Positions 36,798 through 39,998 of a stretch of DNA of 64,000 nt are shown one piece after another. Positions within the stretch are counted from its first letter, which is position 1, and each line of letters starts with the position of its first letter. The notes below the pieces were generated by a model. The model had not been told where the DNA came from, ran no database searches, and worked only from the letters and a program-made list of their open reading frames with translations. Location: positions 1,120,001 through 1,184,000 of the forward strand of contig OZ241993.1 of the NCBI GenBank assembly GCA_965204575.1, written 5' to 3'. This DNA is from an uncultured candidatus Porisulfidus sp. GTDB taxonomy: Bacteria > Pseudomonadota > Gammaproteobacteria > Poriferisulfidales > Poriferisulfidaceae. Made by a program: the position numbers and the translations under genes.

Positions 36798-38428
36798 AGC
36801 GGGAGGTCGCGGCCTGCCTGCGGGTGCAGCACGGTGTCGCAACCGTCCATGGCCGGGTCCAGTTCCGGGTAATCCAGGGTGTAGTGCAGGCCGCGGCTTT
36901 CGCGGCGCATCATCGCGCAGCGGATGATCAGGTCTGAGACCTGGGCGAGGTTGCGCAGTTCGATCAGGTCCCGCGAAATGCGGAAATCCCGGTAGTATTC
37001 GTTGATTTCCTTGCGCAGCAGGGTGCAGCGGTGCTGGGCCCGTTCCAGCCGCTTGGTGGTGCGCACGATGCCGACGTAGTCCCACATGAAGCGGCGCAGT
37101 TCGTCCCAGTTGTGCGAGACCACCACTTCCTCGTCTGAATCCGATACCCGGCTCTCGTCCCAGGGCGCCACGTCCGGCACCGACGCGTCCCGGGGCAGCG
37201 TCTCGTTGATGTGCTCGCTCGCGGCGTGGGCGAACACCAGGCATTCCAGCAGGGAATTGCTGGCCATCCGGTTCGCGCCGTGCAGCCCGGTATGGGCCAC
37301 TTCCCCGACGGCGTACAGCCCGGGGAGGTCGGTGCAGCCGGAGAGGTCGGTGGCGACGCCGCCGCAGGTGTAGTGCGCGGCCGGCACGACCGGGATCGGC
37401 TGGTGGGCTAGGTCGATGTCGTATTCGAGGCAGCGCTCGTAGATGTTCGGGAACGCCTCGCGCAGCTCGGCGGCCTCCTTGTGGCTGATGTCGAGGTGCA
37501 CGTAGTCCAGCCCGAGGCGCTTCATTTCGTGGTCGATGGCCCGTGCGACGACGTCCCGGGGGGCCAGTTCGCCGCGTTCGTCGAAACGATGCATGAATTC
37601 CGCGCCGCTGCCCGGCAGGCGCAGTTTCGCTCCCTCGCCGCGCAGTGATTCGGTCATCAGGAAGGATTTGGCGCGCGGATCGTACAGGCAGGTCGGGTGG
37701 AACTGGATAAACTCCATGTTGGCCACGCGGCAGCCGGCCCGCCACGCCATGGCCAGCCCGTCTCCGGACGAGGTGTCGGGGTTGGAGGTATACAGGTAGA
37801 CCTTGCTTGCGCCGCCGGTGGCCAGGATCACGCAGCGCGCGCGGTAGGCGTTGACGGCGTTGGTCCGGGTGTCCTGGGCGTAAAGCCCGATGCAGCGGCG
37901 CTTCCCGGCGCTTCGGTCGACGATCAGGTCGACCGCGATGCAATGGCTGTGCAACTCGACGTTGGAACGTTCGCGCACCTGCGCCATGAGCGCTTCCTGG
38001 ATGGTGCGACCGGTGTGATCGGCGACGTGCGCGATCCGCCGGCGGCTGTGCCCGCCCTCCTGGGTCAGGTGCAGTTCGCCGGAAGGCGTGTAGGGAGTAA
38101 AGTTCACGCCCTGGTTCTGCAGCCACTGGATCATGGCGGCACCGCGTTCCGCCACGTGCTGGACTACGTCCGGGCGGCACAGCCCGCCCCCGGCCGAGAT
38201 CGTGTCGGAGACATGCAGGTCGACCGAGTCCTTGTCGTCCAGGACCGCCGAGACCCCCCCTTGGGCGTAGGTCGTCGAGCTTTCGGTCGCAGCCGCCTTG
38301 CACAGCAGTGTGACCTTGAGGCGCGGATCCATCTCCAGCGCGGCGCACAGGCCGGCCGCGCCGCTGCCGAGAATCAGGACATCCGTATCATGCGCAACCG
38401 CTGCGCTGTCTGCAACCAGGCGCTTCAC
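36776..38428 (-). CDS. nadB: L-aspartate oxidase
   Basis: [41 protein letters not shown] start lies inside the element end. Confidence 0.97.
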
Positions 38429-39831
38429 GATTTGGTGTGGAAATCAGGGGGCGAGCCCCGGTAGTTCCACTGCATCGTTGACGGATCATCGGCGGTCTCC
38501 ACTAGGCACTCAAAGAAGAATGCCTCCGCTTCGTTGTCCCCTCCCCGTCCCGTCACCGGAGCGCCTCCGGCCAAGAGATTTTCCAAGCCCAGATTCAATA
38601 TGTTTCGTGTGGCATTGAGGTCCGCATGGTCCGTGTGTCCGCAGGCCTGGCACTTGAAATGCGCCTGCTCCTTCCGGTTGTCCTGTTCGGTGTGCCCGCA
38701 TTCCGCGCACGCCCGGCTGGTGTTCCGCGCTGGCACCCGGATCAGGTCCGTCGCCTTGTACTTCAGAAAACGGTCCACCATCCCCATGCAGGAAGACTGC
38801 GCCATCTTCCGGTTCAGCGCGGACTTCGCCTTGACGTTTTTCCCGGGCTTCTCCCTTGTCCCCCGCGCCGAGCGGCGCATCGCCTGCACGTCCAGATCCT
38901 CCAGCACGATGTGCTGGAAGTTCCGAGCCAGGTCGGCCGAGGACTGGTGGCTGAAGTCCCTGCGGATCTCCGCCGCCTTGCGCTTCGCCTTTGCCGCGCG
39001 CTGCTGCAGCCGCTGCCGCCGGTTCGAGGCTACCTTGATCTTCTTGCCAGACTTGGTACGCACCGCCTTCCCATCGGCGTCCTTCAGTTCAATCCGCTCC
39101 CGGCGGCTCGCCCGCCACTGGTAGTGCCGGGCCCGCGCCTCGTACTTCCCGATCCGCTCGTACGGAATCTCGATGAGTCTCCGTCCTCCACACCAGCCCG
39201 CCGCGAGGTTCTCCGAGTTGCGGTCAATGCCGCAGACCCCGCCGTGCCAGCGCCAGTCCGGGTCCTCTACCTCCCACAGCACCGACACGTACCACTTAGC
39301 GAGTTCCCGGTACACCACCGCGACCTTGGCCTCGCCGCCGTCCCAGGGGTCGGCCCCCCGCGTGCGCGACTGCGCCTTGCGGTTCATCCGGATCCAGCCG
39401 ACCTTCGGTACCCAAAGCCGCTTCTTCTTTACCTTCACGTCGTACGGGATCGTAAACGACTCCCGGCTGACACCCTTGATCTTGAAACGGGGGAACCCGG
39501 CCTGCTTGCCGCACTTGCCTTCCCGCCGACGGTGGGAGAAATGCGCGAACGCCGCCCCCAGCGGGAACGCTCCCGTGCCGCGCACAACCGTGGCCGACAA
39601 CCCCCGCAGCCATTCGTGGCCTTCCGTTGCCTTCAAGCGCGTGTACCGCTTCGCGAAGTCAAATTCGGAGGCGCCCGGCCGGTCTCTTTCTCCGGCCTCG
39701 AAACGCCCGTATTCCCGGATCTGGTCAGCCAGCAACTCGTTGTAGACGAACCGGCCGGCCCCGCACAACTGTGTGAACTGCCGCTCCTGCGTCTGGTTCG
39801 GATACAGACGGTAGCGGGAGGCTCGGTGCAT
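38425..39831 (-). CDS. tnpB: TnpB RNA-guided endonuclease
   Basis: YRLYPN, GFPRFK, RuvC GID / VLEDL / HADLNA..NI, Zn finger CAEC-CQAC. Confidence 0.95.
   Translation of the reverse strand: MHRASRYRLYPNQTQERQFTQLCGAGRFVYNELLADQIREYGRFEAGERDRPGASEFDFAKRYTRLKATEGHEWLRGLSATVVRGTGAFPLGAAFAHFSHRRREGKCGKQAGFPRFKIKGVSRESFTIPYDVKVKKKRLWVPKVGWIRMNRKAQSRTRGADPWDGGEAKVAVVYRELAKWYVSVLWEVEDPDWRWHGGVCGIDRNSENLAAGWCGGRRLIEIPYERIGKYEARARHYQWRASRRERIELKDADGKAVRTKSGKKIKVASNRRQRLQQRAAKAKRKAAEIRRDFSHQSSADLARNFQHIVLEDLDVQAMRRSARGTREKPGKNVKAKSALNRKMAQSSCMGMVDRFLKYKATDLIRVPARNTSRACAECGHTEQDNRKEQAHFKCQACGHTDHADLNATRNILNLGLENLLAGGAPVTGRGGDNEAEAFFFECLVETADDPSTMQWNYRGSPPDFHTKS
38444..38580 (-). ncRNA. Putative omegaRNA (scaffold overlapping the tnpB 3' end, plus guide)
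   Basis: Expected position; scaffold ends GATCCGTCAA near 38478; bounds approximate. Confidence 0.5.
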
Positions 39832-39998
39832 GATGGCGTACTCTATCACGCCTTTCCACACGAATCCGTGAAGACCACAATTGAGCCAATTTGCCATGCC
39901 AAATTAATTATAATGTTGCCCTTATGAATTGCCCTACCCCGTGTGCTTGACGCAGCCTCGCGAGAATCTTCTTTGGCGGATCGGCCCAGCGTGCCGAG

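Follow-up and report, generated by a model that had tools for sequence, protein, structure and literature searches.

A tnpB element bounded by ISL3-family terminal repeats in a sponge-symbiont genome, with a hairpin at its guide-RNA end and a candidate guide in the flank

In a 64,000-nucleotide stretch of DNA from an uncultured Candidatus Porisulfidus sp. (contig OZ241993.1, positions 1,120,001 to 1,184,000 of the forward strand; called the window below), which is part of a single-contig genome of 1.82 Mb that is 98.75% complete, a tnpB gene lies between terminal inverted repeats (TIRs). We are confident that this element is a non-autonomous insertion sequence (IS) bounded by TIRs of the ISL3 family, that its only gene is an intact tnpB accompanied by the region of its guide RNA (omega RNA), and that it has been mobile. 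Its mobilization would most likely be the work of an ISL3 transposase acting in trans. Taken as a whole, the observations are probably best explained by an ISL3-moved tnpB passenger that carries a hairpin adaptor and takes its guide from the flanking DNA.

The element was first described from its letters alone, in what we call the sequence-only reading, and that description holds. Two arms of 21 nt, at 38423-38443 and 39853-39873 (all positions are those of the window unless a contig is named), are complementary at 18 of 21 positions (86%); ACCA stands at 38415-38418 and again at 39874-39877; and no transposase was found among the open reading frames (ORFs) of the element. The repeats are not a chance feature, since five further full copies in the genome share them and since they match the ends of an autonomous ISL3. 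These copies are 79-90% identical to that of the window, and when all six were aligned with their 120-nt flanks, similarity was lost exactly at the outer ends of the repeats. Searches of 15 other genomes brought the count for the genus to more than 20 copies, many of them at 80-89% identity, together with one subfamily at ~70% that has the same right end. All 23 full copies extracted from the genus share the right-end TIR; the left TIR lies at the register of the window copy in 17 and further upstream in 6. None of the 23 ends at the TCAA that closes its RNA scaffold without the TIRs, an arrangement that the sequence-only reading had named as the mark of an ordinary IS. In a scan of one genome per species, this family (family A) was found only in Candidatus Porisulfidus (sponge-associated metagenome-assembled genomes, MAGs) or in MAGs of Gammaproteobacteria/Chromatiales, and on one contig binned as Nitrospira, while a metagenome scan yielded one new insertion site; both the species scan, which is pattern-based, and the metagenome scan reach close relatives only. 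The Nitrospira sp. bin75 contig (L198) carries an internally deleted tnpB element whose flank and target site duplication (TSD; AAACAAGT) are the same as those on a contig of a genome of the genus (L041, G007:C82); its assignment to Nitrospira may be a binning error.

A search of the genome for the ISL3 transposase domain (PF01610) returned three intact copies at 218 bits and one weak match. The three belong to an autonomous ISL3 element of 1348 bp, present in copies that are 100% identical, with an open transposase frame that scores 283.6 bits against the NCBI ISL3 equivalog NF033550 (cut-off 180). Its ends read GGCGCATCACGGTTTTGTGTGGAA (left inverted repeat, IRL) and GGGTCTTCACGGAATTGTGTGGAA (right inverted repeat, IRR), and perfect 8-bp TSDs flank it in 3 of 3 cases. 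The TIRs of the tnpB element are 24 nt long: the end on the RNA side matches IRL at 21/24 positions, and the end upstream of tnpB matches IRR at 21/24. Beyond these 24 nt the two elements show no relation, and the autonomous ISL3 is without tnpB. Both ends could be located in one locus for 21 tnpB elements. In 18 of these the two copies of the TSD agree at six or more of the 8 positions, with full agreement in 10; the three exceptions are the window copy (0/8), L044 (0/8) and L038 (4/8). For one copy (L002), the empty allele could be read in a sister genome (G011), where ...GGCTG is followed by CTTCTAAA and then by ATACGG...: the 8-mer is present once and the repeats are absent. Thus, the proposal of a DDE-mobilised element resembling a miniature inverted-repeat transposable element (MITE) is borne out by TIRs in all copies, by the TSDs, by an empty allele with a single 8-mer and by an intact ISL3 of the same TIR types, that is, a DDE transposase with matching ends, elsewhere in the genome. 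No match to Y1_Tnp or Resolvase (PF01797, PF00239) was found in the genome, although the same searches, as controls, were positive in 6 and 12 of 14 genomes. In one other genome of the genus (L028, G005:C16), another ISL3-like TIR starts directly after the right TSD of a tnpB element, so that two elements lie back to back.

These data leave very little room for an ordinary IS200/IS605-type tnpB element that happened to land in a palindrome or MITE already present at the site. Hairpins are frequent targets of IS200/IS605 elements, and this genome does contain a bare palindrome of ~41 nt (G000:C1:624963-625004), in which a left-type and a right-type TIR stand head to head with no evident TSD and which may itself be the remnant of a deleted element. 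However, the full copies all stand with TIRs at different sites (the left one displaced upstream in the six mentioned), most with a TSD of their own, the empty allele lacks the repeats, and the genome has no Y1 or serine TnpA. We therefore regard such a landing as highly improbable.

The minus-strand ORF that spans 38425..39897 most likely starts at the ATG at 39831 (MHRASRYRLYPN), a conserved start that gives a protein of 468 aa. It matches the Pfam domains HTH_OrfB_IS605 (PF12323), OrfB_IS605 (PF01385; 30.3 bits, just below the cut-off of 30.5) and Cas12f1-like_TNB (PF07282), and it scores 187.6 bits against the NCBIfam model guided_TnpB (NF040570; cut-off 100). The more specific NCBIfam models remained below their cut-offs, at 143 against 425 bits for IS200-type TnpB and 98 against 350 for IS607-type TnpB. 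PDB matches of the protein include the TnpB chains 8bf8, 8ex9 and 8h1j. Residues D203, E311 and D404 align with residues 191, 278 and 361 of the TnpB-like chain 9yyg_A, positions that we take to be the catalytic residues of ISDra2, and the CxxC...CxxC finger aligns too. The intact RuvC D-E-D triad noted from the sequence is thus found opposite that of a solved TnpB-like chain, and it is invariant in a four-sequence alignment of the family. A layout of helix-turn-helix, OrfB/RuvC and zinc-ribbon TNB domains fits TnpB, of the OMEGA family of RNA-guided nucleases, as judged from domain models. The frame is open for 465-468 aa in 23/23 full copies. Between the six copies of this genome, dN/dS ranges from 0.15 to 0.27, and the median for 249 pairs is 0.256. 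These results indicate that the TnpB protein is under purifying selection.

The 3' end of tnpB overlaps an omega-RNA-like scaffold that is near-invariant among copies whose coding part differs by 10-20%; this 3' region is conserved beyond coding needs. The scaffold closes with CCGTCAA; a GGACGG further upstream is complementary to this end, and the two could form a pseudoknot. The complementarity, compared by eye, co-varies between family A and two other tnpB families of the same genome, B and C: it reads GACGG/CCGTC, GACAG/CTGTC and GACGT/GCGTC, respectively. TnpB scaffolds presumably close with such a pseudoknot just before the guide. For this, the portion of Yoon et al. (2023, NAR, PMC10711439) covered here gives partial support. 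Since the putative pseudoknot would involve the segment that ends in GTCAA, the ancestral position of the guide would be directly after TCAA. On the minus strand, TCAA (38481-38478) is followed by CGATGCAGTGGAACTACC (38477-38460) and by a GGGG-CTCG-CCCC hairpin (38459-38448), in the order given by the sequence-only reading. That reading had placed the end of the scaffold at TCAA, which looks right for the ancestral end, and had taken the DNA beyond it for a guide, fixed or swappable, which our data do not support. A search of 38300-40000 against Rfam gave no match at E values up to 1, and a strict scan called neither a sigma-70 promoter nor, at the right-end hairpin, an intrinsic terminator. 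On the left side of the element, the motif TGATAGAGT, kept between the TIR and the tnpB start, might conceivably act as an extended -10.

Within the subfamily of the window copy, the 18 nt after TCAA are nearly invariant; the ~70% subfamily has a homologous, diverged stretch at this place and not an unrelated sequence. RNAfold pairs this segment with the inner half of the TIR. In an alignment of 27 right ends, 87.8% of the cells of the structure were paired, compared with at most 59.1% when the partners were slid; 18 cells were changed on both sides, a number reached in 0 of 500 shuffles, and three pairs in helix 1 (the outer helix) showed compensatory changes. The arm follows the variable centre of the TIR and is in effect a partial inverted copy of it. 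As the segment co-varies and pairs with the TIR, it fits a structural arm rather than a free guide, for which co-variation with the binding site of the transposase would be unexpected.

We also considered that the element is moved by ISL3 and that the 18-20 nt after TCAA serve its omega RNA as a fixed internal guide, whose constant target could be, for example, a phage or plasmid, a competing element or one of the ISL3 ends. The apparent end of the scaffold at CCGTCAA, with its co-varying upstream complement in three families, would suit this, as would the strong conservation of the 18-mer within the subfamily. Against it stand the pairing and co-variation just described, the fact that the equivalents in families B and C are inverted partial copies of their own TIRs, and the G/CTG motif of the flank (see below), which an internal guide would leave unexplained. 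Moreover, when the 18-mer was sought in its own genome with up to 3 mismatches, only the six copies and an isolated stretch of 39 nt (L015, G000:C1:1563883-1563921) were found, and no target. That stretch, which precedes a small antitoxin-like ORF, holds the 18-mer minus its first base, the small GGGG/CCCC hairpin and 6 nt from the start of the TIR, with neither scaffold nor outer TIR; it is probably a relic and not a target. Among 2.9 million viral contigs (plasmids were not searched) there was one exact match (L223:6082-6101), which extends to 20 nt with its neighbors (the TCAA-proximal A, the 18-mer and a G) and lies within a portal-protein gene. We rejected it as a target: about one 18-mer match is expected by chance, by a rough estimate from a guessed collection size, and the portal gene resembles those of Mycobacterium and Gordonia (actinobacterial) phages, with nothing alike in the 16 genomes of the genus. 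An internal guide therefore appears improbable to us.

Two metatranscriptome runs from two studies each gave one assembled contig that reaches from 38419/38422 to 38573/38577 and so covers scaffold, hairpin and TIR, one of them with 16 foreign letters beyond the end. The limits of these contigs are the borders of the repeated conserved stretch, RNA ends and strand cannot be read from them and DNA was possibly present; we draw nothing from them. Omega-RNA-like scaffolds also occur as orphans without tnpB (L007, G000:C1:1479683-1479784; L011; L014). In L007, TCAA is followed by another hairpin and an end, ...AAGCGCC, that resembles the tip of the TIR; in L011 and L014, the ~22 nt that follow TCAA are a second copy of sequence lying ~150 nt upstream, and both copies vary in parallel.

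Families B and C show the same layout with other sequences. Family B comprises 3 copies (41% protein identity) and family C comprises 7 (~35%); the TIRs of both differ from those of family A, and 8-bp duplications are present. In both families the order is ...GTCAA, an arm complementary to the element's own inner TIR, and then the TIR, as in the window element. A conserved 18-mer after GTCAA pairs with the TIR in family B; in family C, the arm after GTCAA changes together with the inner TIR, and the base before the TSD is always a purine. The weak fourth PF01610 match (L022) was considered as a partner for these families and rejected, as it has no matching TIRs. When the genome was searched by BLAST with the TIRs of families B and C, only tnpB elements were found. 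One family C copy (L111) can be compared with an empty allele in a relative (L212, G012:C5:8840-9110): the element replaced 67 bp of a coding region and the tip of its left TIR is missing, which looks like an insertion with an adjacent deletion.

We then turned to the DNA around the insertions. Every TIR-like end in the loci fetched was collected and sorted by what lies inside it, the side upstream of tnpB being read in the tnpB sense. In 29 of 30 distinct sites of the tnpB element, the base directly 5' of the left TSD is G; T occupies the next position in 18 of the 30, C follows in 15, and the complete CTG is present in 10. None of the duplications starts with G. Among control ends, G was found in 9/30 on the right-end side of the element, 7/17 for ISL3 IRR, 0/3 for IRL and 6/23 for other ISL3-like TIRs, in total 22/73. 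The enrichment (29/30 versus 22/73) has a Fisher p of 1e-10, a value that overstates the independence of the sites, which come from 16 related genomes and are distinct by flank. The additional metagenome site also has G. In family C, a purine occupies the motif position in 10/10 sites (two of which are the same site in two genomes), compared with 4/10 on the other side. A motif confined to one side and one strand is not predicted by a symmetric transpososome, and the transposase's own copies are without the G. It occupies the position required of the target-adjacent motif (TAM) of TnpB for a guide that begins with the first base past the right end; the empty allele then has the order TAM, 8-mer, right flank. 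The G/CTG of the flank points to a guide that may be taken from the flank.

Accordingly worded as a proposal, the cycle could run as follows. ISL3 transposase from the three identical autonomous copies would act in trans on the TIRs and make the 8-bp duplications. The omega RNA would be transcribed through the TIR, its canonical scaffold still ending in ...CCGUCAA, and the adaptor arm would fold on the inner TIR, which would place the transposase-binding repeat in a hairpin and leave only the outer 9 nt (UGAAGCGCC) before the flank. The guide would consist of the 8-bp duplication and the DNA beyond it, and its target would be the unoccupied allele, 5'-(C)TG, 8-mer, right flank. The occupied site would be spared, as the right end finishes in C (GCGCC) where the TAM-like G would be needed. 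By cutting empty alleles with (C)TG, TnpB would let repair from the occupied copy spread the insertion to sister chromosomes or incoming DNA. Homing into (C)TG alleles would allow such insertions to persist, which may be why surviving insertions nearly always have the G. Of the readings of these ends, a flank guide with (C)TG as its TAM is at present the strongest, and we lean slightly towards it. More tentatively, with somewhat more doubt than conviction, we suggest that at least three TnpB lineages of this sponge-symbiont genus switched from a Y1 or serine TnpA to an ISL3-type DDE transposase acting in trans, that an RNA arm folded away the TIR while the flank guide was kept, and that the G (CTG) is the footprint of TnpB-driven homing or retention.

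A different role for the same structures was weighed as well: the element would be moved by ISL3, its guide would no longer be tied to the insertion site, the palindromic end would act on DNA (transposase binding, end protection) or as a transcription stop, TnpB would be kept for another role (regulation, processing of mRNA or other RNA), and the G would reflect an unrecognised target preference of the transposase. Both ends have hairpin potential that involves the TIR, evidence for the hairpin cannot separate RNA from DNA, and the flank motif is short. In addition, ISL3 elements form circles and presumably transpose by copy-out-paste-in, according to the part of a recent preprint covered here (bioRxiv 10.1101/2023.06.07.543989), and with such a mechanism restorative homing is unneeded. 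Conversely, the control ends of the autonomous ISL3 and of other ISL3-like repeats lack the G preference, the motif is found on one side and one strand only, at the expected place of a TAM for a flank guide, the catalytic residues are intact in a protein under purifying selection, and the scan called no intrinsic terminator at the hairpin. This alternative is in our view unlikely, though it deserves more weight than an internal guide.

Several points weigh against the flank guide and the homing built on it, in addition to the relatedness of the sites. The putative pseudoknot, seen by eye, sets the canonical start of the guide directly after TCAA, so that a flank guide requires the hairpin and 9 nt to be tolerated in between, and such an interval between scaffold and guide is without precedent among bacterial TnpBs in the literature covered. 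The motif is weak, consisting essentially of one strongly fixed base (G), and the TAMs described in the part of a 2026 review used here (PMC13565253) are longer, at 4-5 nt. Family B is thin (G in 2/2 sites by script and 5/7 by eye), and in family C A is as frequent as G. No autonomous element with family B or C TIRs was found in this genome. If transposition is copy-out-paste-in, as presumed for ISL3 in the covered part of 10.1101/2023.06.07.543989, the donor copy is kept, and the benefit of homing becomes an assumption. Finally, the window copy is itself atypical, with no 8-bp TSD and only a 4-bp overlap, ACCA, with the empty allele.

That junction is seen in several relatives, whose empty alleles join 38418 to 39874 with the four-base overlap; the outer 4 nt of the element, 39874-39877 (ACCA), are indistinguishable from duplicated target. 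One might suggest, and it is only a suggestion, that a normal 8-bp duplication was followed by an 8-bp deletion between GGT repeats. The nadB start codon is where the element inserted (38419-38428 and 39874-39883): the native GTG, parted from its gene, is now found upstream of the insertion, and an in-frame GTG within the TIR (38426-38428) opens nadB and shares bases with the tnpB stop (GTGA). The sequence is GTGGTTGCAGAC in the empty allele and GTG AAG CGC CTG GTT GCA GAC in the occupied frame, and MKRLVAD... replaces MVAD... at the start of the protein. Since the TIR now supplies the nadB start, nadB expression may depend on the element. The coordinates of all features are collected in Table 1.

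Table 1. Features of the tnpB element, its surroundings in the window, and the related families of the same genome
Feature	Position	Strand	Remarks
Whole non-autonomous tnpB element, TIR to TIR	38419..39877	-	homology of the six genomic copies begins and ends here
Right-end TIR, omega-RNA side, ISL3 IRL type	38419..38442	-	reads GGCGCTTCACGATTTGGTGTGGAA from outside to inside; 21/24 identical to autonomous ISL3 IRL
Adaptor	38443..38477	-	18-mer (38460-38477), GGGG/CCCC hairpin (38448-38459) and 5-nt linker; 18-mer pairs with inner TIR (RNAfold)
Omega-RNA-like scaffold	38478..38575	-	overlaps 3' end of tnpB ORF; near-invariant among copies; 5' limit approximate
tnpB ORF, 468 aa	38425..39831	-	stop TGA within TIR; RuvC residues and zinc finger present
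Left-end spacer, TIR to ATG	39832..39853	-	conserved motif TGATAGAGT, kept across copies
Left-end TIR, ISL3 IRR type	39854..39877	-	reads TGGTCTTCACGGATTCGTGTGGAA from outside to inside; 21/24 identical to autonomous ISL3 IRR
TTG in TAM-like position	39878..39880	-	directly 5' (tnpB sense) of duplicated target; exact register uncertain, the junction of the window copy being atypical
Candidate flank guide, if the omega RNA crosses the TIR	38399..38418	-	TGGTTGCAGACAGCGCAGCG; codons 4-10 of the present nadB ORF
nadB (L-aspartate oxidase)	36776..38428	-	one neighbor of the insertion
rpoE-like extracytoplasmic function sigma factor gene	39999..40589	+	other neighbor of the insertion
Family B loci L105-L107	G000:C1 226614-227843, 266692-267924, 362218-363456		25-nt TIRs (GGGAATTGTATACGATAATCCGCAA type), 8-bp TSDs
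Family C loci L108-L114	G000:C1, seven loci		GGGAATTATGTA-type TIRs, at least three subtypes

That TnpBs can be associated with DDE transposases and inverted ends is already known from Altae-Tran et al. (2023, PNAS, PMC10691335), who, in the part of the paper covered, describe six such branches (DDE-1 to DDE-6), all with inverted terminal repeats, as well as solo TnpBs whose ends are like those of transposase-bearing elements and which were proposed to move in trans, IS630 being named. The part of the review PMC13565253 that we used lists ISL2, IS630 and IS1031 as partners, calls the pairing rare in prokaryotes and argues that DDE transposons should have little to gain from an OMEGA nuclease. 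A tnpB bounded by ISL3 ends was not found described in the TnpB, ISL3, DDE, TIR and TSD literature searched, a search that left the supplements of PMC10691335 outside. As far as these searches reach, three things are new: a partnership in which ISL3 would act in trans, the presence of the hairpin adaptor in each of three TnpB lineages, and the flank signature. The system lends itself to testing what TnpB does for a DDE element, as it combines an ISL3 that lacks tnpB, passengers that share its ends and carry tnpB alone, sister genomes in which the site is empty, and a candidate TAM. The hairpin arm suggests how a guide-RNA scaffold may adapt to a transposase-binding repeat, which bears on the origins of Fanzor-type systems; if true, the switch to a DDE transposase in trans would be a bacterial parallel to Fanzor capture. 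For annotation, calls of tnpB-only "IS200/IS605" elements can mask elements of another IS family. Locally, the window copy has cut nadB off from its native start codon and now provides a new one.

Compared with DDE-1 to DDE-6 as presented in the covered part of PMC10691335, the element is alike in that tnpB lies within inverted TIRs, its 3' end is less than 250 bp from the end of the element, and the solo copies share the ends of a transposase-bearing element. It differs in its partner, as ISL3 is not named in the main text of that paper so far as covered (the supplements may list it); in that the autonomous partner here is without any tnpB, and three TnpB lineages in one small genome share the layout; and in two features that are not part of the DDE-associated TnpBs as described there, namely the TAM-like motif of the flank and a hairpin arm complementary to the TIR.

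In Fanzor1 and "Fanzor2*", too, as described in the portion of PMC10711439 covered, a nuclease of the TnpB family is the cargo of a cut-and-paste transposon with TIRs and TSDs, often a non-autonomous one. The guide-RNA scaffold of Fanzor1 includes the TIR and the TSD, and the RNA runs ~15 nt past the TSD, according to the same portion of that paper (Yoon et al.). In both cases a TIR would come to lie between the scaffold RNA of the nuclease and a guide derived from the flank, the latter being conditional for the element described here. Unlike Fanzor, this system is bacterial, and it keeps the old scaffold end and the putative pseudoknot, with the TIR appended by way of an extra hairpin, whereas the TIR and TSD of Fanzor lie within the scaffold, again by the covered part of that source. 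Furthermore, the TSD would here provide the first 8 nt of the guide, since the conserved motif precedes the TSD rather than following it.

With IS1341-type elements of the IS200/IS605 group, the element has in common that tnpB is the only gene, that a conserved omega-RNA-like 3' region overlaps the end of the ORF and that general TnpB models are matched. Elements of the IS200/IS605 and IS607 types have asymmetric hairpin ends and are mobilized by a Y1 or serine TnpA. IS200/IS605 elements have neither TIRs nor TSDs, as stated in the covered part of PMC13565253; unlike these and unlike IS607, the element has 24-nt TIRs and 8-bp TSDs, in a genome without a Y1 or serine TnpA. Like non-autonomous derivatives of ISL3, it has TIRs that start with GG, AT-rich 8-bp TSDs, multiple copies and a transposase that would act in trans. 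It departs from the usual ISL3 derivatives in that its internal sequence is unrelated to the autonomous IS and that its cargo is an RNA-guided nuclease together with its RNA.

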